From Thermodesulfobacteriota bacterium (GTDB lineage: Bacteria > Desulfobacterota_D > UBA1144 > Nemesobacterales > JAJCZQ01): a stretch of DNA of 64,000 nt. The translations under genes were made by a program, and so were the position numbers. Shown in pieces: positions 9,073-63,319 of this stretch. The notes beneath the pieces were generated by a model, which was not told the origin of the DNA, ran no database searches, and saw nothing but the letters and a program-made list of their open reading frames with translations. Positions within the stretch are counted from its first letter, which is position 1. Each line of letters starts with the position of its first letter. The DNA lies in assembly GCA_965215275.1 (NCBI GenBank), contig OZ244044.1, positions 1,344,001-1,408,000 on the forward strand, given 5' to 3'.

Positions 9073-11585
9073 ATGAACATCCTGTTTAGAGTAATACCCC
9101 CCCCCATAAGTTATTAATCCCTTTTTTCTTTCTTCTGTGTTTTGTAAACGTTGGTGCATATGGTCAGACCAGCATTAATAACTGTGACTCCAGTGCAACG
9201 ACCGAAGCTACGTTGAGAGTTCAAGGAGCGGCACACAATGGAAGTTTAGCTGCCGGTGCTGATCCGCATTACTTTCAGACAAACATAAATGAACCTCTTA
9301 TTGTAGATATAGAGGTAAACTTCTCCTTCTCCAGTGATCAGGAATACAGTTTACAGTTGTGTGACAGCAATGATGGTCTGATAGCAAGTACTACTGAAGC
9401 ACATCCAAATGATGACAGGGTAGTAAGGACGGCCACTCTACAAACTCGCTTAAGACAGGGAACGTACTATATAGTTGTGGGAAGCAGTGGTGCTACATCC
9501 TACAATGTTAAAGCTCAATTAGCTGATTCTAATGGACTCTTACAGGCCTGTCTAGATATTACTACCAATTTTCCAAATGATCCCTTGTACGGGTGTCAGT
9601 GGTATCTGAAAGGTCCAGTGGTTGATGTGCTAATAAGTAACAATCGGATATTCCAAACCTCTGGAGAAGATATAGATATAAACATAGAAGAGGTCTGGGA
9701 TGATAGTGTATTTGGAGCTGGAATTAACGTAGCGGTGGTAGATCATGGTATGGACACAGATCATGAGGACCTTGCTGACAATGTGGATACCACACTTTCT
9801 CATGATTACTCTGGAAATGGTGATCTGTACAGTCCTTCAAGTGGTCGCGGCACACGTGTAGCTGGCATTATAGCAGCAGTGGGTGATAACAGCCTTGGAG
9901 TAAGAGGTGTAGCACCTGAGGCAAACATCTACAGTTATAATTTAGCTGATAACTTCAGTGATGCTAATGCAAAGGACGCCATGGTCCGTAATAAGGATAT
10001 AACTGCTGTATCGGTCAACAACTGGGGACCGAAGGACCTGCCGGTTCTTACAGAGGCTTCATCAGAGTGGGAAGAAGGAGTGGAAACTGGTATAAGAGAA
10101 GGGTTTGGTGGTAAAGGAGTGTTTTACGTATGGGCGGCAGGGGACGGAGGTGAAGGATCAGATCAGGCTAATTTTAATGAGTATTCCAGCTACTACGCTG
10201 TAACTACCGTATGTTCAGCAGAGATCAGTAAGATTGCAGTAGGGGAGATCTCTAATGTAGGGGAGGTTGTTAAGAGTTCTTTTTCAGAAGAGGGATACAA
10301 TCTATGGGTATGTGCACCGGGTTCTGATATTGTAACTACCGACAATAACGACGGTTATAGTTTTGAGTTCCCTGGAACGTCAAATTCAGTTGCTGTCGTT
10401 TCAGGAGTAGCAGCACTGATACGGGAGGTAAACAGCGATATTAGCTGGCGGGACCTGAAACTTATCCTGGCAGGTTCAGCCAGCCAGGCAGGCGAGGTAG
10501 CTGGTGGCCGCCTAGGCTGGAAGAGAGGAGAACTTCAATACGGTTCTGATTCAGAGTATTATTTTTACAGTCCAAAGTTTGGTTTTGGCATGGTAGATGC
10601 TGCTGCGGCAGTGGAACTTGCAGGAAGCTGGACCAACGTTCCACCGCAAATGAGACCCGTGACGGTTTCCTCTGGTAATATCAATACGGTTATCCCGGAC
10701 TTCACAACGGGAGGAAACGCGGAAGACGTTTCCGCTGTCTTCACACTGAACGTACCTGATATTGATATACCAGGTACTGAGGTCTTTACGGAATTTATAG
10801 AGATAGGTATCAATTTCACTCACCCTTTCTTTCCTTTTTTAGATATAGAAATAACCTCCCCTGACGGTACTACCGTGTCGAAACTCACTGAGGCATATCC
10901 AGCAGATGCAATATCACATTTATCTGACGGGTCTCTTACTGTAAACGACTTTAAGTACACAGGCAGAGAGCACCGTTTTGGTTTAGCCAATCACCTGGGA
11001 ACAGACCCTGCCGGAGAGTGGACTTTGAAAATAACTAATAATTCACCTGCAGGTACGGGGACCTTACACTCATGGAACATTAAGGTCTATGGTCATATGT
11101 CTGGTGATAAACCGACGTTTAACAGCTGGACGATACCAAGTAAGAATTACGTGCCGGGAACTGCAGTAAAGGAAACACTGCCTGAGGCAACAGCAGGGAA
11201 TGGAGAATTAACCTACAGCCTTTCCCCTCTTTCTTTACCTGTTGGACTTACTTTTAGTGAAACTGACCGAGTGATCAGCGGAACACCAACTGCTGTATCT
11301 TCCGGCAGTTATACATATACGGTAACGGATGAAGATGGAGATACGGACGAGCTCATCTTTACCATCAGGGTAACAACCACGCCACCAGGACCGACAGACC
11401 CACCAACAACAAGACCACCGACACGAAGACCGACACCATCAGGTAGTGATGCAGGTGGAGGAGGATGTGCGGTCTCCGAGCAGAACGAAGCTGCTTCTGA
11501 TCTGCTCACAGCATTGGCATCTCTGATGCTTATACCTGTATCCGTTGTGATAAGAAGGAAGATAAGGTCTCGGATAAAGGCTTAG
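9073..11585 (+). CDS. Kexin-like S8 family surface protein 1 (PPC-like, S8, P domain, one Ig repeat, GGGGC-TM tail); frameshifted at C9 tract; catalytic His replaced by Arg
   Basis: ORF 9213-11585 stays open upstream to 9090 and encodes signal peptide LLIPFFFLLCFVNVGAYGQ, homologous to the paralog 2 N-terminus; nearest usable ATG (9073) is out of frame across C9. Confidence 0.85.
9097..9105 (+). repeat. Poly-C tract (C9)
   Basis: GTAATA-C9-ATAAG. Confidence 0.95.
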
Positions 11586-45796: not shown

Positions 45797-48700
45797 ATGA
45801 AAAACATGATGAATTCTAATCCCCCCCCCCCATCAATGTCGTAGTCCAGTAAGCGGTTCCTGCTGGAACAACGGACAGTTCATACTTTCCCTTATCTTTT
45901 TTCTTCTGTGCATAATGGTCATAGCTGCAAAAGGACAGAGCGGCCTGGAAGAAACATTATCTGAATGCAGAAGCATCAGTGCAGACACGGAAGATCCGCT
46001 ATACGGATGTCAGTGGCATCTGAAAAATACAGGACAGCTTGGGGCTGTAACTGCCTCCGGAGAAGATATAAACATAGAAGGGGTCTGGGATGATAATGTG
46101 TTCGGTGCTGGAATAAACGTAGCGGTGGTAAGTGATGGTATGCAGACGGGTCATGAGGACCTTGCTGATAATGTAAATACCAGACTGAACCATGATTATT
46201 CAGGAAGCGGTAACGTATACGACCCTTCAAAAGCTCATGGTACACGTGTATCGGGAGTTATAGCAGCAGTGGGTGATAACAGCCTTGGAGTAAGAGGTGC
46301 AGCACCAAAGGCAGGCATCTATGGTTATAATTTAGCTGGCAACTTCAGTAATGCTAACGCAAAAGATGCAATGGCCCGTAATAAGGAAATAACAGCTGTA
46401 TCCGTTAATGGCTGGGGACCGGATGACGGATATTCTCTTCATCAGGCTTCAGCTTCCTGGGAAGAAGGAGTGGAAGAGGGTATAAGGGAAGGGTTTTATG
46501 GTAAAGGAGTGTTTTACGTCTGGGGAGCAGGGGACGGGCATGAGAATAACGATCAGGCCAATTTTTCTGAATATTCAAATTACTACGGCGTAACTGCCGT
46601 GTGTTCAACGGACGGTTCTGGAAAGAAGAGCTTATTTTCAGAAGAGGGAGTAAATCTTTGGGTATGTGCTCCAGGAGAACATATTACAACCACTGACAAT
46701 AACGATGGATATGTTTTTGATGCGAGTGGAACGGCATATTCAGCAGCACAGGTTTCAGGGGTAGCAGCACTGATGAGAGAAGTGAACGGAGATCTGAGCT
46801 GGAGGGATATAAAGCTTATATTTGCGGGTTCAGCACGGCAGAACGACGTTTCTGACCTGAGCTGGAGGACTGGAGCAGTAAAATACGGTTCTGATACGGA
46901 AAGATATAATTATAATCCTAAGTATGGTTTTGGAGTAGTTGACGCAGAAGAAGCAGCAGAACTTGCCAGAAGCTGGAAAAGTGTGGGTGAAATGAGGACC
47001 GTTACCACCTTTTCTGATAAAGAGATAACAATTCCTGATGGAGAAGGAGAGGCAGACGGGGTCCTTGTTTCCAGACTTATGATACCGGACCTTGAAGAGG
47101 TAACATTTACGGAGTTCACAGAAGTGGAACTTGTTCTTTCGTGTGATTGCTTACAGAACCTAAATATACAGATAACCTCTCCTTCTGGGACAACGTCGGA
47201 ACTTGTGCGGGAGGTTGCCGGGGAGTCTGTAAGGGGATCTTCAGCTGAAGAAGAAAACTGCGTCAGTTACCTGAGAAGAACACATCGTTTCGGGTCGGCT
47301 AAGCACCTCGGAGAAGACCCTTCCGGAGAATGGATCCTTAAAATATCCGATACTGCTTCCGGAGATGCAGAAGATGGAGAAAATACTTTTACCTTACACT
47401 CCTGGAGCATTAAGGTATATGGGCATAAGAAGGGTGATACTGTACAGGACTTGACTAAGGAGATAACTCCTAAACTTCCTCCAGGCGGTTTTGGCACCTC
47501 TCAGATCGATAGAGTTTATACAGTAGAGGAAGCAATAACACCATTAACGCTGCCTGAGGCATCGGTAGGTACTCCGCCAATTACTTATAGTTTTGATTCA
47601 TTACCTGATGGATTGGCATTTGATCCTGACACCCGAGTGTTAAGCGGAACACCAACTACTGTAAAGGATAGGACCGCTTATATATATAGGGCTACTAATA
47701 GTGAGGCAACGAACTTTATCTTTGTTCAGATTACAGTAAAAGACCTGCCGCCAACCTTTAATGATACGATAGGTAATAAGGAGTACATAAAAGGGGTTCC
47801 GATAACACCAGTAACACTGCCTAAGGCAACAAGAGGGAATGGAGACTTAACATACAGTTTAGCCCCTGATCCATCTGCTGCTGGATTGACATTTGATCCT
47901 GTTACACGAGTGTTAAGCGGAACACCAACTACTGCAACGAGCAGTACTACTTATACATATACGGTAACAGACGGAGATAACGTTACTGATGATTTGACGT
48001 TCAATATCACAATACATAATGACACTTCTCCAACCTTCTGGGAGACGATAGATGGTCAGGAATACATAGCAGGAAGTCAGATAACACCAGTAACGCTGCC
48101 TGTGGCACAATCAGGGAATACTCCATTAACTTACAGTATAACTCCTCGTTTACCTGATGGATTGAGTTTTAACAGGAACACTCGAACGATAAGTGGAACA
48201 CCAACTACTGCAATGTCTCAGGCTACTTATACATATACAGCAACAGACGTAGATGACGATCCGGCTGAGTTAACGTTTGATATTACTATATCAGCAGACA
48301 CAGATCCGACCTTCGGCAGTGAAATGATAGATAATAAGGTGTACGTTAACGGCATTACAGCAGTAATGGAAACACTGCCTGAAGCAACGGGAGGGAATGC
48401 TCCTTTAACTTACAGCTTAAGCAGTGGTTTACCTGCTGGACTGGACTTTGATACAACCACCCGAGTGTTAAGTGGAACACCCAATGTTGTTGATCCAAGT
48501 GTACTTCCTGTAACTGTTACTCATACGTATACGGTAGAAGACGCAAATGGAGATACTGACAATCTGACGTTCAGTATCACTACAGAAGCAGACAGCGATC
48601 CGGACTTCAGCAGTGTGACAATACCTGATCGGGTGTACACGGGGAGATCAATAACGCTACCCGAGGCAACGGGAGGGAATCCACCAGTCATGTACAGTAT

Positions 48701-55844: not shown

Positions 55845-56034
55845 TAGATAACTATGTAAGATTGTACATACTACACATAGTAATCTCTAACTATAAATTA
55901 CACGCAACTGAGTGTAAATCTTCGGCTGGTCAAAGACCTTGATTGTTTTTAAACATGTCTGGAAATAAAATCCAAAATTGATACAAGCTGATAATATTTG
56001 AACTAACGATTAAAAACAAGGAGGTTAAATTTCA

Positions 56035-56499
56035 ATGGAATATGAAGGAGGTAAATTTTCAAGTATAGCAGAAAGTCTATCCAAACGTTTACATGGGAGA
56101 ACTAAAGAAGGTTTAGGTATCACCGTAGGAGATATTCTTGAAGTCTGCGTAGACGCTGAAGTTTTAGGAAGCAGAGGTATAAATATGGTTAATTGTTACC
56201 CTGGGGATTTTCGTACAAACATATGTTGTCCTGTTGCTTTTTTTATTTCTATAAATGGAGTTGCGGCACAAGGACAGGGACACTTTAGTTTTAGTAAAAT
56301 AATGGAAAAGTTTCATAGACACATGTATACCCAATGCTTTATGAGGACCCGTGAGGCGGCGATTATTAGCAATGACTGGGTGACAAAAGAATATGAAAAA
56401 TATGAGGATTATATTAGACGGCTTAGAGGAGCAGGTGTTAGGATTGAGGCTTACTTTATTGGCGGTCGGATGGAAAATTCATTATTAGTAGATATTTAA
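56035..56499 (+). CDS. Hypothetical protein A1 (paralog of 60364-60798)
   Basis: RBS AAGGAGGT; shares NCY..CCPVAFFISINGVAAQG.GH..FHRHMY..CFM.TR.A.IISNDWVTKEYEKY with the second copy. Confidence 0.8.
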   Translation: MEYEGGKFSSIAESLSKRLHGRTKEGLGITVGDILEVCVDAEVLGSRGINMVNCYPGDFRTNICCPVAFFISINGVAAQGQGHFSFSKIMEKFHRHMYTQCFMRTREAAIISNDWVTKEYEKYEDYIRRLRGAGVRIEAYFIGGRMENSLLVDI

Positions 56500-56528
56500 C
56501 GAGTTATTCTATTAGCTATGGTAAAGAG

Positions 56529-56694
56529 TTTAAATGAACTTCCAATAAGACAGAAAATAGCTACATTGATGAGCAGTGGTGTGTTATCTCAAGAGAATAA
56601 TTCCATTGCAATTTCGTGTAAGGTGGTTTCTTAACGCTCTCGACAATAATGGATAACAAACTAAAGATGTTTGTGCTTCCAATTTAATTTTCAA
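56529..56694 (+). pseudogene. Decayed fragment of the UDG-like gene
   Basis: Matches ~61186-61355 (AATAAGACAGA.AATAGCTACAT.GATGA, GACAATAATGGAT, AAAGATGTTTGTGC.TC.AATTTAATTTTC) with an indel and a TAA. Confidence 0.8.
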
Positions 56695-56743
56695 ATTAGG
56701 AACCCAAAACAACTAGTTTTACTGTTTTACGATCAGGTCTCTT

Positions 56744-57256
56744 CTATACCCAAAATCTTGATGGGTCCGTTTCAAATAAATCTTTTATAAAATCATCTCT
56801 AACTTCTTTTTTTATTTCACAAACCTGTAAATATATCTTAATTGATAACTCCGTATCATAATTGTTACGATGCACTTTCTTTAAGTTAAAATAGAAATAT
56901 ATCAAATACACAAGACCCGACAAACATCCTTTCTTCTCAAATGATTTATATATAGCTGGAAAATTTTTTATATATTTTAAGAAGTCATTTTTACTATGCC
57001 TATCAGAATCATAATATTCATCAAAAAAACGTGCAGTTTGTATATTTATATTATGATTCTTAAAATAATTTTCTAAAGAATAATGTTCTAACTTTCTGTT
57101 CCATCCTATATCAACAGACTTATGTCTTGTTCTTGCTACAAACCCTACATATTTGTTATATTTTGGGATTGACATACAAACATAAAGAAGGGATTTTAAA
57201 ATATCATCATATTCAGAATTAGGATAACCTTTTCTCATATTCACACACAAAACCAA
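56744..57256 (-). CDS. Hypothetical protein (very AT-rich)
   Basis: 170-aa ORF, no family recognised. Confidence 0.55.
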   Translation of the reverse strand: MVLCVNMRKGYPNSEYDDILKSLLYVCMSIPKYNKYVGFVARTRHKSVDIGWNRKLEHYSLENYFKNHNINIQTARFFDEYYDSDRHSKNDFLKYIKNFPAIYKSFEKKGCLSGLVYLIYFYFNLKKVHRNNYDTELSIKIYLQVCEIKKEVRDDFIKDLFETDPSRFWV

Positions 57257-57434
57257 AAAACATTAAAAAACTTTTTAGAATTGCCACTTCAGAATATTTG
57301 TAATGCAGTTGTATAGCAATTTTACTCTTGACAACATTTATATGATAACCATTTAAACATATGTTTATACTAATAAACTATCTACTTGCTTGTTTTAGGC
57401 AACATTGTATATAATCCCCAAACTTTAAGCAGTA

Positions 57435-57556
57435 ATAAAATAAGTTCCACACCGCGTTTTGAATATTCATCTATAAGTGTAAACTGCATTAAACTCCGTT
57501 TAGTCAGATATTTGCTGCTACATTCAATAATGCCTTTATCTTCTGGTTTCTTGCCA
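57435..57556 (-). pseudogene. Decayed copy of the 3' end of the GNAT-aminotransferase gene
   Basis: GKKPEDKG..SKYLTKRSLMQFTLIDEYSKRGVE vs GKKLENQG..SRYLTERNLMQFALMGEYSKHGVE; DNA matches ~61768-61891. Confidence 0.85.
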
Positions 57557-57686
57557 ATTAAAAGAGGCATACTCTCTGTTTAAAACTAACAACCCTGTAT
57601 GATAATTTAGGAAATTACATATATAAATTGACATAAAGAAAATTATTATTGACACTTAGTTGGGATAAAGATAGTATATTATAATA

Positions 57687-57953
57687 ATGCGAATCCCCCC
57701 CCCCCCCCCCCCCCCCCCCCATCTACCCCATAACAACACGGATACTACTGGCTGGGATAATTTAGAGTCTTCACGAGCAATAAATAGTTTAATAGCAGTA
57801 TACCCACCGTTTAATAACACCAAGGGTTTTATTCTACTCCGAGCAGCACAGCGTATTGTCGAGCATTGCTCTATCGACTGGTATAGGTGTGTTTTTATAT
57901 ACTTGAATGTAACTCATAGAATCAAATTAATATATGGGAGGTATATTGTATGA
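57687..57953 (+). CDS. Possible leader ORF containing the C26 tract
   Basis: TTGACA(57649)-17-TAGTAT promoter, ATG 57687, MRIPPPPPPPPH..., stop overlaps the next ATG (ATGA). Confidence 0.4.
   Translation: MRIPPPPPPPPHLPHNNTDTTGWDNLESSRAINSLIAVYPPFNNTKGFILLRAAQRIVEHCSIDWYRCVFIYLNVTHRIKLIYGRYIV
57695..57720 (+). repeat. Poly-C tract (C26)
   Basis: GCGAAT-C26-ATCTA. Confidence 0.95.
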
Positions 57954-59269
57954 AATTATGTGCATATATTGTCACGTATGATGGAGGAAGTGCTCCAAAT
58001 CCCTTCTGGAGGTACTGCACCTTAGCATTTTGTACTCCTCATCGTAAGAGGGCAAAATTAGAAGTAGGTGATTGGATAGTAGGTCTTTTAGATAAAAGCA
58101 GAGGTAATAAACTGCTATACGCAATGGAAATTTCTGAAGTATTGGATTTTGATGAGTACTTTAACGATAAACGTTTTGCGAAAAAAAAGTTCAAAGTAAA
58201 GGGTAATTGGCAAGAAGAATGTGGAGATAATATATATAGAAGAAATAGTGAAGGTGAATTAGAACCATACCCGCATAGTTATAACCATCCTCGTAACAAA
58301 AATCAACAAGATCTAGATATGAAATATCCTAATGTGTTTATTTCAGAGAAGGATAATTTTTATTACTTTGGAAGAAACGCAAAAGATATACCCTCAAAAT
58401 ACAATATTTTTGCCGGATACAATATTACACAAAATATTAAATACTTTGATCCGCCTATTATAAATGATTTTATACTTTGGTTAAAAAACAATCATAAACC
58501 CGGAATACATGGAGATCCAAATAATAAGAGGAAAGCTATATTAGTCCGAGTAGGTATTGATGGAACTAAGGATTCGGGTCGTTGGAACGCTCCCTGTAAT
58601 CCGGACACAAAAAATTTTGTATATGTGCCGATACAACAAACTGAAAAATCCAATGCTCCTGGCATGGAAAGATACTATTCCAAACTTATAGTTCCGGCAT
58701 TGGATAGTTTTTCAAAATGTAATAACCGCAGCATTTCATTGCCCAAACATTTAATGGAAAAGCGTATGCACTTGGACCCAGACTTTGAAAACCTTACATA
58801 TGGCGATACCAGTTCTCGAGGTAAGAAGCTGCTGGATTTTAAAGAAGATGATCTGGTTGTATTCTATGCCAGTTTGAAACCTATAAAAAAGACAAAAGAC
58901 AATTTTGTTTATGCACTTATAGGTATGTTAGTAGTGAAAGAGATTTTGAGGGTAAAAGATGTAGACCCTAAACGGTTTGATGAAAATGCCCATACTCGTA
59001 ATGCTGAATGTGACCCGACGGACATAGTGGTTATAGGCAAAGAGGGTGTATCCGGTCGATTTGAGAAATGTATTCCAATCGGCGAGCGGCGAAATAATGC
59101 CTACCGTGTGGAAGAACGCATACTAGGTGAGTGGGGAGAGAAAGGATTGGAAGTCAAAGATGGATACATACAACGGAGTGCAAATCCTCCGCTGTTTGAA
59201 AAACCTGAGCGTTTTTATGAATGGCTTAAAAAGAAAAATCCAAAATTGATACAAACTAATAATCCTTAA
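57950..59269 (+). CDS. Nmad2-Nmad3 fusion (nucleotide-modification-associated domains)
   Basis: N part YIVTYDGGSAPNPF..CTLAFC..GDWIVG..GDNIY (Nmad2-like); C part LVRVGID...FVYVPI...HLDPDFE.LTYGD...VFYASL (Nmad3-like). Confidence 0.78.
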   Translation: MKLCAYIVTYDGGSAPNPFWRYCTLAFCTPHRKRAKLEVGDWIVGLLDKSRGNKLLYAMEISEVLDFDEYFNDKRFAKKKFKVKGNWQEECGDNIYRRNSEGELEPYPHSYNHPRNKNQQDLDMKYPNVFISEKDNFYYFGRNAKDIPSKYNIFAGYNITQNIKYFDPPIINDFILWLKNNHKPGIHGDPNNKRKAILVRVGIDGTKDSGRWNAPCNPDTKNFVYVPIQQTEKSNAPGMERYYSKLIVPALDSFSKCNNRSISLPKHLMEKRMHLDPDFENLTYGDTSSRGKKLLDFKEDDLVVFYASLKPIKKTKDNFVYALIGMLVVKEILRVKDVDPKRFDENAHTRNAECDPTDIVVIGKEGVSGRFEKCIPIGERRNNAYRVEERILGEWGEKGLEVKDGYIQRSANPPLFEKPERFYEWLKKKNPKLIQTNNP

Positions 59270-59331
59270 GCCAACTCAAGAGTTCTAATTGCTAATAAAA
59301 ACTAAATCAATTAAATAAGGAGGATAATTAT

Positions 59332-59988
59332 ATGACACAATCTAATTCACAACCTGATATTTTCATTTATAAGATGACAGCGGATACTGGTGGAGCACCA
59401 TGCATTCATGATGGGCTTATCTCACTGTGTATCTGTAAACCAGATATAAGAACTAGCCCATCCGCGAATAAAGGAGATTGGATTATTGGTATGGGTGGTA
59501 AAAGAGTTCCTGAATTAAAAGATAGATTAATTTATATAATGCAGGTGAAAGAGTGTATTAAAGGCAGTGTATACTACGCACCGGAAAGTAAATATGCGGA
59601 CCGTCCAGACTGTATTTATGAGTGGGATGGGAACGATTATATCTGGAAATCAGGAGCAAAGTATCATCTAGATGGGACAGGGTTAACAACAGATTTAGGT
59701 GAAGCACCAGAATACGACAAAGCAATTTGTCTTGTAGGAGATAAATTTGCATATTTTGGAGATGGCAAAAAAACAGATCCGAGTATTGCAGAAATTAAGA
59801 CTATTTATGAAGCACTGCCTAGGAATTATAAAAAAAATCATCCCACTGCAGACTATAAGCAGTTGATTGACTACATTAATCAGATCATAACAAAATATGA
59901 AGGAATGAATAGTACACCAACTCATTCAGATAAGAGCAAAAAGAGTAATGAAGTGGAAGATGATATGTATAAAGTTACTTGTGGGTAA
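59332..59988 (+). CDS. Nmad2-like protein
   Basis: YKMTADTGGAPC...SLCICKPDIR...GDWIIG...LIYIMQV...RPDCIY; RBS AGGAGG. Confidence 0.75.
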   Translation: MTQSNSQPDIFIYKMTADTGGAPCIHDGLISLCICKPDIRTSPSANKGDWIIGMGGKRVPELKDRLIYIMQVKECIKGSVYYAPESKYADRPDCIYEWDGNDYIWKSGAKYHLDGTGLTTDLGEAPEYDKAICLVGDKFAYFGDGKKTDPSIAEIKTIYEALPRNYKKNHPTADYKQLIDYINQIITKYEGMNSTPTHSDKSKKSNEVEDDMYKVTCG

Positions 59989-60013
59989 TTTAAGATATAA
60001 ATAAATACTCAAA

Positions 60014-60334
60014 ACTATACTGGTTCGAGTAGGTATTGACGGAACTGATGTTTCAGGACATTGGAACGCTCTCTGGAATCTGGACTCCGAACGGTTTGAT
60101 GAAAATGCCCATACTCGTAATGCTGAATAGGACCTGACGGATATGGTAGTCAGAGGCAAAAAGGGTGTATCCGGGCGGTTTGAGATCGGTGAGTGGGGAG
60201 GGGAAGGGTTGAAAGTCAAAGATGGCTACATACAACGGAGTGCAAATCCTCCGCTGTTTGAAAAACCTGAGTGTTTTTACGCATGGCTTAAAAAGAAAAA
60301 TCCAAAATTGATACAAACTAATAATCCTTAAGCC
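60014..60334 (+). pseudogene. Internally deleted Nmad3 copy
   Basis: Three blocks matching ~58535-58606, ~58968-59066 and ~59126-59272; internal TAG; identical end KKKNPKLIQTNNP. Confidence 0.88.
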
Positions 60335-60363
60335 GATACGCAAAAATAAGGAACTAAATTCTG

Positions 60364-60798
60364 ATGAGAGATAGAAGAGGTGAATTTTCACATATAGCAG
60401 AGCGTATATCTGGACTTTTAAATGAAAGGTCGCAAGAAAATTCAGGTATCTCCATAGAAGATATTCATATACTAAGTGGAAAAGCAGGTATGATTAATTG
60501 CTACCTTGGATTTCCTACGAACGAGTGTTGTCCTGTTGCTTTTTTTATTTCTATAAATGGAGTTGCTGCACAAGGACGAGGACACCTTAATTTTAAAAAA
60601 ATGATGGTAGAGTTTCATAGACACATGTATATGCGATGCTTTATGAAGACCCGACATGCAGTAATTATTAGCAATGACTGGGTGACGAAAGAGTATGAAA
60701 AATATCACGAAGATATTGAACACCTTAGAAGGAGGGGTAAGACGGTTGAGGCTTACTTTGTCAGCCGGGGTGGTAGTCTGGTATTAATAGATATTTAA
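60364..60798 (+). CDS. Hypothetical protein A2 (paralog of 56035-56499)
   Basis: Near-identical core blocks with A1. Confidence 0.8.
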   Translation: MRDRRGEFSHIAERISGLLNERSQENSGISIEDIHILSGKAGMINCYLGFPTNECCPVAFFISINGVAAQGRGHLNFKKMMVEFHRHMYMRCFMKTRHAVIISNDWVTKEYEKYHEDIEHLRRRGKTVEAYFVSRGGSLVLIDI

Positions 60799-60965
60799 TA
60801 AGTTGTTGCTGTATTCAATGTTGAAAGAACACATGCTCGTTGAGAGATCTCCGTGAATATAAACCCCGATAGGAAAATGAACGGAATGTCTGAAGATTCC
60901 TTTTGATATTGGGCAAAAGTTCGTATATAATGTGCATGAGTTAAAAAATAATTAGGAGGCTATTT

Positions 60966-61672
60966 ATGAGTAACCTGAAAGATTTTGTTTCATTTGCCGA
61001 ATCTGAACTCGGTGGTGATGGGGGGGGGGGGGGATTCTTAACGAGAGTGGCAATATTCTTTACAGTAGTGCATCAACTCTTCGACGTAGTAATACATCAA
61101 CCCTTCAACGCGGTCCTGTATACCTCTTAGGAACAAATCCGGGTGGAGACCCAAAAGAATATAAATATAACACCATACAAGATACTTTAGATGCACTTCC
61201 CAATAAGACAGAGAATAGCTACATCGATGAAAAGTGGGGGCGTCGCCCGGGGAAACAGAAACACCCGTTGCAACGTCGTGTAATATGGCTTCTTAATGAC
61301 CTTGACAATAATGGATTAAAAACCAAAGATGTTTGTGCGTCTAATTTAATTTTCCAACGAAGCAGAAATACAAAAAGAAAAAATATAGATTTTAAGAAGT
61401 GTGCTGATATTTGTTGGCCCGTCCATGAAAGAATATTGCAAGTGGTTTCACCTAGTTTAATTATTGCGTTCGGTATTGAAACGTACAGTTATTTAAGAAA
61501 TAAATTAGGAAATGGGAATGAAATCACATTTCCATCAGGTCACGGAACCTGGGAATGCAGATCATTTAGATCTGATTCAGATATTTTGGTAGTAGGTTTA
61601 CCTCATTTAAGCCGTTACGCAGTAGATCGCCATGATAACGTAAAAATATGGATACAACGCCAAAAATGGTAA
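60966..61672 (+). CDS. Uracil-DNA-glycosylase-superfamily-like protein, frameshifted at G14 tract
   Basis: RBS AGGAGG + ATG 60966; frame after the tract reads VYLLGTNPGG...ASNLIF...PSLIIAFG...GLPHLS. Confidence 0.68.
61020..61033 (+). repeat. Poly-G tract (G14)
   Basis: GAT-G14-ATT (reverse complement AAT-C14-ATC). Confidence 0.95.
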
Positions 61673-61738: not shown

Positions 61739-63319
61739 CTACTTTGCTGTCAAAAATGTAAGCCGTGATAAAGCAAATTCCACTCCGTGTTTTGAATACT
61801 CACCCATAAGTGCGAACTGCATTAAATTCCGTTCGGTCAGATATCTGCTGCGGTAGCTAATATAAATACCTTGATTTTCCAGTTTCTTGCCCAGCTTTAA
61901 TGGATCGATCCCCTCCGGGATTTTAAAGGTAACGATAGCGGGAGAGCAGTCGGTGTTTTTCCCAACTACTTCCAATCCCATATCCTTCAGCTTGTTCCTT
62001 ATTATAACGGAACACTCTTGAGACCTTTCTGAATTGGCTTCAACGTCCGTCAGTTCCAGTGCTTTACTTACCGCGTAAAGCAGATTGGAAGACAGTGTGT
62101 ATGGAACACCTTTTGCGGTAACGTAACTGTTCAGATCCAGATATCTGGGAAGGTTTTTTCTTTTCGGCAGGATAAGATGGTTGTAAAAAACAAAGGAAAG
62201 TCCCGGGTAAGAGGCAAGTCCTTTTCCGCTGACACCCGTGGCCATATAAGCTTTTTTTAAATCAACCGGCACCGTTCCCAGAGAACTTATACAGTCAACG
62301 AGTGATTTGACCGAATTATCAGCACATATATCTGTAATACCTTTTAGATTATTAAGCACGCCAGTTGAAGTCTCGCAATGAACAAACCATAACCATTCAA
62401 AACCGTTTTTTAAAAGGTCTGATATCTTTTCATTTTGTAACGGGTCTCCCCACGCCACTGAATAAGTTGCAAAGTCCAGGTCAGATCTCTCGGCGTGATC
62501 TATCAACCTGTCACCAAATTCACCGTTTGAAAGTATCAATCCTTTCCCTTCCAAAGTTGACAGATGAGCTGCCACAACGTCGTTTGCCAGTGTGCCGGAC
62601 CCCATTAGGGTCTGAGTAGACTTGCAATTTACCAGCTGCGATAATTTTTTCTGAACTTTTTCAAGTTCTTTCTCAAATTTCTCCGACCTGTGTGAAACGG
62701 GGGGTTTTGCAAACTCTTCCTTTACCTCTGTCTTTACATTTACCGGTCCCGGCTGGTAGAAATATTTTTGTGGAATCTCCTTATCGCTTAATATCCTGGA
62801 ACTATTCTTGAACTTTCCGTAGGAATCGCAGGTCAGGTACATGGGCTGAAAACTGGCTCCGTTTTTTCCCACAAGAGGACCGAATTTCGTAAAACCCAGT
62901 CTTTTGTACAGGCTGAGCTCTTTTATACTTGCCGATATGACGGCCAGGTCGTAGTAATTATTTTCGCAGTAACGGGCGAGGTATTTAAAAAGTCCCTTTA
63001 TTACCTTTTTCTTTCTGTATTTTTTTCTTATTGCGAGAAGCCTCAGTTCGCAGAGCGACCTTGATCCCGGCAGATGATCGTCCAGATCTTTCAGCTTGTT
63101 GTCTAGGGAAAAAGGACGTTTGTCCCTTACTGCTATCATTCCCGCCAGACCGTGTTCATTGAGACAGACTATATAGGTATTTTCATTATGGAACTTATCA
63201 ACCAGAAGTCCGGTGGAATTGCTTTCGTGTTGAGGGATCTCTTCAACAAAGGTCTCATAGTTGAGCTTATGTATTTCCTGGAATTCCCAATCCTTGTTTG
63301 CTATCTTAAAACTGACCAT
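61739..63319 (-). CDS. GNAT-like acyltransferase fused to class V PLP aminotransferase
   Basis: N part ELRLLAI...LYKRLGF; C part PGPV, SHRS, GSGTLAN, HCETSTG, VDCISS, SGKGL. Confidence 0.85.
   Translation of the reverse strand: MVSFKIANKDWEFQEIHKLNYETFVEEIPQHESNSTGLLVDKFHNENTYIVCLNEHGLAGMIAVRDKRPFSLDNKLKDLDDHLPGSRSLCELRLLAIRKKYRKKKVIKGLFKYLARYCENNYYDLAVISASIKELSLYKRLGFTKFGPLVGKNGASFQPMYLTCDSYGKFKNSSRILSDKEIPQKYFYQPGPVNVKTEVKEEFAKPPVSHRSEKFEKELEKVQKKLSQLVNCKSTQTLMGSGTLANDVVAAHLSTLEGKGLILSNGEFGDRLIDHAERSDLDFATYSVAWGDPLQNEKISDLLKNGFEWLWFVHCETSTGVLNNLKGITDICADNSVKSLVDCISSLGTVPVDLKKAYMATGVSGKGLASYPGLSFVFYNHLILPKRKNLPRYLDLNSYVTAKGVPYTLSSNLLYAVSKALELTDVEANSERSQECSVIIRNKLKDMGLEVVGKNTDCSPAIVTFKIPEGIDPLKLGKKLENQGIYISYRSRYLTERNLMQFALMGEYSKHGVEFALSRLTFLTAK

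Follow-up and report, generated by a model that had tools for sequence, protein, structure and literature searches.

Nmad2-Nmad3, orphan and UDG-fold genes at a probable cargo site of a Thermodesulfobacteriota genome: candidate modules for defence against modified-base phages

We analysed a 64,000-nt stretch (hereafter the window; contig OZ244044.1, positions 1,344,001-1,408,000) of a Thermodesulfobacteriota genome that consists of one contig of 1.99 Mb. The window carries a gene in which the domains Nmad2 and Nmad3 are fused, a second Nmad2 gene, an orphan gene, and a gene for a protein with a uracil-DNA glycosylase (UDG) fold; coordinates are window positions unless marked as genome positions. 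With moderate confidence, we read this locus as a variable cargo site at which three separately mobile modules lie side by side, and these modules likely defend against phages with modified bases. The initial annotation of this DNA had proposed a novel four-gene system that recognises and attacks hypermodified DNA, and we now consider it improbable that the four genes form one conserved system. What gives the locus its value is its modules, since their arrangement here is no more than a local mosaic.

Co-occurrence and neighbourhoods of the genes

Co-occurrence counts led us to reject a four-gene operon. Local profiles for Nmad2, Nmad3, the partner families of Nmad3 (see below) and the orphan found nothing in the 80 best glycosylase loci out of 171 from genomes; 53 of these 80 had at least 10 kb of sequence. 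Conversely, neither this glycosylase family nor the orphan was present in any of 81 Nmad3 loci, which comprised the best 80 of 528 metagenome matches and one viral locus, many on short contigs. No Nmad or glycosylase gene was found in eight orphan loci, and none by annotation in one plasmid locus. The genes that the initial annotation had joined into one system were thus largely never together elsewhere: only the orphan and the glycosylase recurred, in one sister genome (G001), where three orphan copies are followed by an intact glycosylase gene at the same site as in the window. G001 (80% complete) gave no Nmad2 or Nmad3 match; it carries three glycosylase copies, two of them standing alone. 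In addition, the host genome holds a second Nmad2-Nmad3 pair elsewhere, as two separate genes without an adjoining glycosylase or orphan. Because no cross-links were found at these loci, and because the second pair and two of the G001 glycosylases stand alone, we regard the modules as separable.

The neighbours of all three modules included defence-type genes. Among the 76 of 102 Nmad3 neighbours that were scanned, we found type I and ISP restriction-modification genes, DUF1016, Schlafen (3), OLD-TOPRIM, ThiF-JAB, HEPN and integrases (3), along with one dCTP deaminase-like gene; thymidylate synthase, kinase, aGPT-PPlase and UDG were not among these 76. Glycosylase neighbours (88 of 146 scanned) included ApeA (2), another HEPN, NERD (2), WYL, HNH, a C5 methylase and transposases. 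The orphan travels alone, often inside defence islands, with neighbours such as an ADP-ribosylglycohydrolase with a BREX-like ATPase, AbiE, Cas6/Cas10, WYL and PD-(D/E)XK. As the initial annotation had noted, no base-modifying enzyme is visible in the window region, according to both its open reading frames (ORFs) and Pfam. Its preference for defence over base synthesis also agrees with our results, namely the predicted reader-type fold of Nmad3, the defence-type neighbours, and the occurrence of Nmad2 in the validated anti-phage system DS-4 (both described below).

Pfam and a fold model confirmed the four annotated genes in place. All cluster ORFs lie on the + strand, and the cluster is AT-rich as described (GC 37.0% vs 42.6% for the window). 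The inventory was nevertheless incomplete, as a broken Nmad3 gene and an older upstream copy of part of the block had been overlooked. The cluster and its borders comprise the following features.

57649-57677 (+): sigma70-like promoter of a genome-wide leader family, TTGACA-17-TAGTAT; consensus match only
57687-57953 (+): DNA methyltransferase gene, 5' end only and decayed, with a run of 26 C (C26); recognised by similar leaders elsewhere in the genome and by frame outcomes
57950-59269 (+): 439-amino-acid ORF with Nmad2 (57950-58531) fused to Nmad3 (58532-59266); Pfam
59332-59988 (+): second Nmad2, of a different subfamily and with its own ribosome-binding site; Pfam Nmad2, E 2.9e-27
60011-60334 (+): broken Nmad3 without a start, with an internal deletion and a stop; 75-81% identical to the fused Nmad3 (tblastn, alignment)
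60364-60798 (+): orphan gene of 144 amino acids; no significant Pfam match
60903-60931 (+): sigma70-like promoter of the glycosylase gene, TTGATA-17-TATAAT; consensus match only
60966-61672 (+): UDG-fold DNA glycosylase-like gene, ATG at 60966, frame broken at a run of 14 G (G14); fold, 301 relatives
61739-63319 (-): host GNAT-aminotransferase gene, the right boundary of the site; Pfam, same neighbour in G001

Properties of the three modules

In the 439-amino-acid fusion, Pfam identified Nmad2 (PF18753) at residues 3-192 (E 6.7e-47, 160 bits) and Nmad3 (PF18754) at residues 195-384 (E 4.6e-20, 72.7 bits). The second Nmad2, which shares 23% with the first, scored 95.9 bits, and all three scores exceed the gathering cut-offs (26.1 for Nmad2, 27 for Nmad3). 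The profile check suggested with the initial annotation therefore bore out both Nmad domains, whereas the Pfam UDG profile gave no match to the UDG-like protein. Compared with the split paralogue, 15 nt are gone at the fusion junction, including the stop codon and ribosome-binding site, and both domains occurred in one protein nowhere else among the best 120 of 716 hits. By sequence comparison, these two observations identify the fusion as a local 15-nt deletion and, with the split paralogue itself, rule out an ancient fusion. The broken Nmad3 at 60011-60334 is the former partner of the second Nmad2; in genome G023, a relative of the second Nmad2 precedes an intact Nmad3. A direct repeat of ~190 bp (88% identical; genome positions 494404-494596 and 496657-496849) flanks the second Nmad2-Nmad3 pair and may mark its insertion.

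The unit that is conserved consists of Nmad3 and a partner. A partner was present in 52 of the 81 Nmad3 loci, and in 33 of the 41 loci having 700 bp on each side; it was Nmad2 in 15 loci, family B in 26 and family C in 11, leaving 29 with none. Family B (motif DPFxEFGSFGCTGCH) has no Pfam match and adjoins or is fused to Nmad3, as in L134:5740-6378, L172:2923-3561 and the C-terminal half of P0189; the fused form was found in five loci, and inspection by eye showed it for 11 of 12 long hits. Family C (motif YKRTHxGDP...DCMG) lies beside Nmad3, often convergently (L167:3602-4123, L113:176-817 and L201:5713-6186), with the opposite strand used in 7 of 10 motif cases, and in genome G019 it lies between Nmad2 and Nmad3. 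We considered families B and C as Nmad2 homologues, but the profile comparisons were not significant. Within the class, 3 of 120 genomes contained Nmad3; the viral collection had one locus, and close named relatives among the best 120 of 716 hits came from Candidatus Dadabacteria and Mycalebacterium. In two genomes of the same order, Nmad2 stands with Nmad3 amid housekeeping genes. Cassettes of TIR-like, Nmad2 and MazG-like genes were read from the sequence of three same-order genomes (L001-L003; G017, G021, G057).

For Nmad3, the predicted structure is a PUA-superfamily barrel, which is a fold of reader type. Its model (mean predicted local distance difference test, pLDDT, 96.3) matches EVE, YTH, ASCH and McrB-N domains, with Z scores of 7.9 for PH1033 (EVE), 7.8 for VcaM4I and 7.2 for ZmASCH (5guq; root-mean-square deviation, rmsd, 4.0 over 131 aligned residues). 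The top 22 rows of the fold search were all PUA-type domains, judged from entry titles, and Foldseek likewise ranks the PUA-superfamily class first. Sequence searches of the PDB gave weak hits only, and an Atlas search with Nmad3 returned unnamed clusters, all under 0.9. Since Nmad3 keeps invariant H80, D82, D84, D92, N152, H154 and R156, its sequence suggests catalysis; invariant Asp residues occur in both Nmad2 and Nmad3. The Nmad domain names reportedly stem from a 2013 paper, and we found no paper on the fold or function of Nmad3 in the searched literature, which omits most subscription papers.

The glycosylase-like gene, read from the ATG at 60966, is cut to 54 amino acids by G14 (61020-61033), and run lengths of 9, 12 or 15 would yield 233-235 amino acids. 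The 212 amino acids downstream of G14 have no Pfam match at E 0.1; the UDG profile was detected in three of six relatives at E 0.007-0.025, below the cut-off. Nevertheless, the model (pLDDT 92.9) has the UDG alpha/beta fold, matching family-4 UDG with a Z score of 10.9 (rmsd 3.1, 143 aligned; Foldseek E 8.6e-7). The top Foldseek match is Sulfolobus UDG, and the top 13 rows of the fold search are all UDG-family or UDG-bearing. GxNPG-type and His-containing motifs are present, the invariant residues of the family being G33, N35-P36-G37, H191 and S193. The family has 301 relatives, with strong matches in 2 of 120 genomes of the lineage, and the host encodes a canonical UDG separately. Scans of genomes and viruses with single proteins gave no match.

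The family of the orphan is unnamed and counts 169 relatives; the alignment contains invariant His87 and Cys92 and near-invariant Cys55. The orphan had no PDB sequence match, and its Atlas matches were under 0.9. Assignment to vWA is a lead only, given weak hits in 3 of 114 members and a single CoxE-vWA hit at E 8e-4. Locus L198:2-1431 (G001:C108) contains three or more tandem orphan copies that diverge from one another. In two unrelated loci, ORFs that look FtsZ-like by eye, with no Pfam match at 1e-4, adjoin the orphan (L216:5820-6845, L202:7540-8262).

Homopolymer runs and remnants at the site

The homopolymer tracts noted initially do exist (C26 at 57695-57720, G14 at 61020-61033), but C26 falls outside the cluster as then delimited, and long G/C runs are found genome-wide. 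The genome contains 78 G/C runs of length 6, none of 7, six of 8 and 133 of at least 9, compared with ~0.5 of at least 9 expected by extrapolation; A/T runs end at 9, and many G/C runs lie within repeated gene families. With 133 such runs in the genome, the two in the cluster are not special, and C26 is the longest.

C26 belongs to a dispersed leader, composed of the promoter, an ATG, poly-C and the decayed methyltransferase 5' end, which heads unrelated genes including a methyltransferase-like gene. Copies lie at genome positions 899203 (-), 384531, 496921 and 828695, in addition to that at window positions 57649-57953, and one leader-headed locus is presumably an operon of the DUF6361-PLD type. 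The decayed 5' end has a weak peptide match to a methyltransferase at genome position 1814659. At the C26 length, the leader frame ends on the Nmad2 start, which has a ~1-in-3 chance of occurring. We read the dispersed leaders as captured promoters for cargo genes, and C26 was rejected as a locus-specific switch because of its membership in this family.

The initial annotation had also invoked phase-variable control. This is plausible for the glycosylase, where G14 sets the reading frame and runs in G001 occur at promoter spacing, but it does not extend to C26 as a switch particular to this locus. All three G001 glycosylase copies have an 8-9 base run right after a -35-like box, within the spacer in two clear cases. 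Furthermore, proteins P0001 and P0121, which are 98% identical, imply another frame at the G run, inferred to be 10 G and likewise out of frame. Judging from these sequences, the glycosylase looks repeatedly targeted by runs. In Campylobacter-type poly-G contingency loci, both reading frames and promoter regions carry G/C runs; the runs here, as read from the assembly, resemble them in both placements and in the genome-wide excess of long runs. A literature search on phase variation in the host lineage found nothing relevant.

Upstream of the cluster, an older copy of the block spans 55899-57555 and is 72-77% identical to the younger one.

55899-55995 (+): Nmad3 3'-end remnant; 75% identical to 59165-59263, broken frames
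56035-56499 (+): intact orphan-gene paralogue of 154 amino acids; 56% amino acid identity to 60364-60798, 72% in DNA
56529-56695 (+): UDG-fold gene remnant; 77% identical to 61186-61357, with stops and frameshifts
57420-57555 (-): decayed duplicate of the flanking GNAT-aminotransferase gene, 3' end only; 77% identical to 61753-61891, with a matching peptide

Because the Nmad3 end, the orphan, the glycosylase remnant and the 3' end of the host gene are repeated upstream at 72-77%, this block probably represents an old tandem duplication that decayed unevenly. Rough ratios of non-synonymous to synonymous substitution rates (dN/dS) were 0.31 for Nmad3, 0.43 for Nmad2 and 0.38-0.41 for the glycosylase, with conserved columns mostly retained.

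Possible function and competing explanations

If the modules act against modified phage DNA, module 1 (the Nmad2 and Nmad3 pair) would take hold of a hypermodified base after flipping it out, and the parallel with BapA suggests that it may strip the added group through the invariant His/Asp residues. The orphan (module 2) travels alone. The UDG-fold enzyme (module 3), whose gene has a promoter-like site to itself, would cut out a modified pyrimidine, and the resulting abasic sites would stall phage replication, as with Brig1-3; slippage in the G run would switch this glycosylase, which is now out of frame. In this host, modules 1 and 3 could act together, although their link is not conserved. 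More speculatively, and at present with rather low confidence, we propose that Nmad3 and its interchangeable partner form a two-domain PUA-barrel enzyme, widespread and as yet undescribed, which would remove the hypermodifications of phage DNA and expose the DNA to resident glycosylases or restriction enzymes. Here it would be joined to a Brig-like glycosylase of new specificity, with both under homopolymer switches, one of them from a dead methyltransferase leader. If true, Nmad3 would gain a fold class and a testable job, ~300 UDG-fold proteins would join the Brig-type candidates, and genes against modified DNA would be kept switchable, as expected of costly genes. Such enzymes would also be of practical use, since modified DNA can be mapped with proteins that recognise phage base modifications or take them off.

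The closest parallel is Brig3-BapA. In the accessible text of that report, the model of BapA consists of two ASCH barrels, and the protein takes glucose off glucosyl-5-hydroxymethylcytosine via D101, feeding Brig3 (bioRxiv 10.64898/2026.02.25.707755). Both cases place a UDG-superfamily glycosylase beside an ASCH/PUA-barrel protein, a predicted one in the window, and the Nmad3 model matches ZmASCH, which the available part of the report gives as the comparison structure for BapA. By eye against the printed alignment, the GxNP motif is shared with Brig3, whereas Asn104 of the window enzyme stands opposite what appears to be Asp127 in Brig3, and counterparts of Brig3 E55, D127 and N225 are not evident in that by-eye comparison. 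As far as the report's accessible text goes, brig3-bapA is an overlapping two-gene operon; the window genes are apart, separately promoted and unlinked elsewhere, and the ~1 kb that separates barrel protein and glycosylase contains the orphan, a remnant and a promoter-like site.

Stand-alone UDG-fold genes can also defend, as with Brig1 and Brig2 in the portions of the reports at hand (PMC11078745; bioRxiv 10.1101/2025.10.29.685425). Like these, the window gene is a stand-alone UDG-fold gene in an AT-rich mobile or defence region, and the available text on Brig1 names Sulfolobus UDG, also the top Foldseek match here, as its best structural match (PMC11078745). Unlike here, control by tracts is not mentioned in the accessible parts of those reports. 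DefensePredictor (PMC13092281), in the part available, lists Nmad2 as protein 5 of the validated anti-phage system DS-4 and also predicts NMAD/UDG/MazG systems; Nmad3 was not found in its 10 supplementary files. An Nmad2 inside a validated anti-phage operon is thus a shared feature, whereas the thymidylate synthase, kinase, base-hypermodification protein and TIR described for DS-4 in that part are absent from the window region (ORFs, Pfam). Modification-dependent restriction enzymes, such as VcaM4I (EVE-HNH) and those with the archaeal McrB N-domain, share the reader fold class of the Nmad3 model but carry a nuclease, and Pfam found no fused or adjacent nuclease domain in the window. By analogy, the cluster likely works like Brig-type and PUA-reader defences against modified DNA, and what ties it to Brig1, Brig2, Brig3-BapA and DS-4 is such likeness, short of membership.

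Several observations weigh against a defensive role or the proposed mechanism. No PADLOC 2.0 model matched any of the five cluster proteins, module 1 comes without a nuclease, and only one of seven UDG-like candidates from Vibrio integrons was active in the accessible part of the study (bioRxiv 10.1101/2025.10.29.685425). Many neighbours are housekeeping genes, and the defence-type neighbours are given as a raw tally. The fold scores of Nmad3 are middling (Z <8), its Foldseek matches all have E >0.001, and the Nmad2-Nmad3 profile comparison reached only 51%, over a 24-column motif. The site also holds four gene remnants, the rough dN/dS of the orphan is 0.69, and the run lengths come from the assembly alone, in which errors are possible.

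We regard it as unlikely that Nmad2-Nmad3 instead supply the host with a modified nucleotide, by making or processing it, with the glycosylase-like gene as unrelated cargo. The Pfam names imply such a role, the invariant His/Asp/Arg residues suggest catalysis, the available text on DS-4 couples Nmad2 with a thymidylate synthase and kinases, and one neighbour is dCTP deaminase-like. However, that neighbour aside, no base-modifying enzyme was found among the 76 Nmad3 neighbours or in the window region, the predicted fold is of reader type, and the viral collection holds just one Nmad3 locus.

It is unlikely to a similar degree that the site is a decaying island, with tracts as mutational or assembly noise and the fusion as an accident en route to loss. 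This would fit the four remnants, the two observed glycosylase alleles, both out of frame, the uniqueness of the fusion among the best 120 of 716 hits, and C26 as the longest run in the genome. Yet the intact genes show dN/dS <0.45 and retain conserved residues, three independent glycosylase promoters of G001 each carry a run, and G/C runs of 7 are lacking while 133 of at least 9 exist.

Slim prospects attach to one dedicated system, in which the modified base would be unmasked or sensed by the Nmad proteins and excised by the glycosylase, with the orphan assisting. The Nmad3 end, orphan and glycosylase were probably duplicated as a unit, the orphan adjoins the glycosylase at the same site in G001, and brig3-bapA offers a precedent; against this stand the lack of cross-links in 80, 81 and 8 loci, the separate promoter-like site of the glycosylase, and G001 (80% complete), with three glycosylases but no Nmad2 or Nmad3 match. 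Finally, it is very improbable that the UDG-fold gene serves as an auxiliary in the repair of damaged host bases: the nearest solved folds are repair enzymes and some relatives lie amid housekeeping genes, but the host already has a canonical UDG, only 2 of 120 lineage genomes have strong matches, and neighbours differ almost locus by locus.

Some further features of the window lie beside the modules. The boundary gene at 61739-63319 (-) encodes a GNAT/FeeM-like acyltransferase fused to a class-V aminotransferase and is kept in G001. The very AT-rich interval 56700-57400 contains a single 170-amino-acid ORF of doubtful reality (weak RNase_T match, E 0.004). Further poly-C runs in the window are C11 at 45821-45831 and C9 at 9097-9105.

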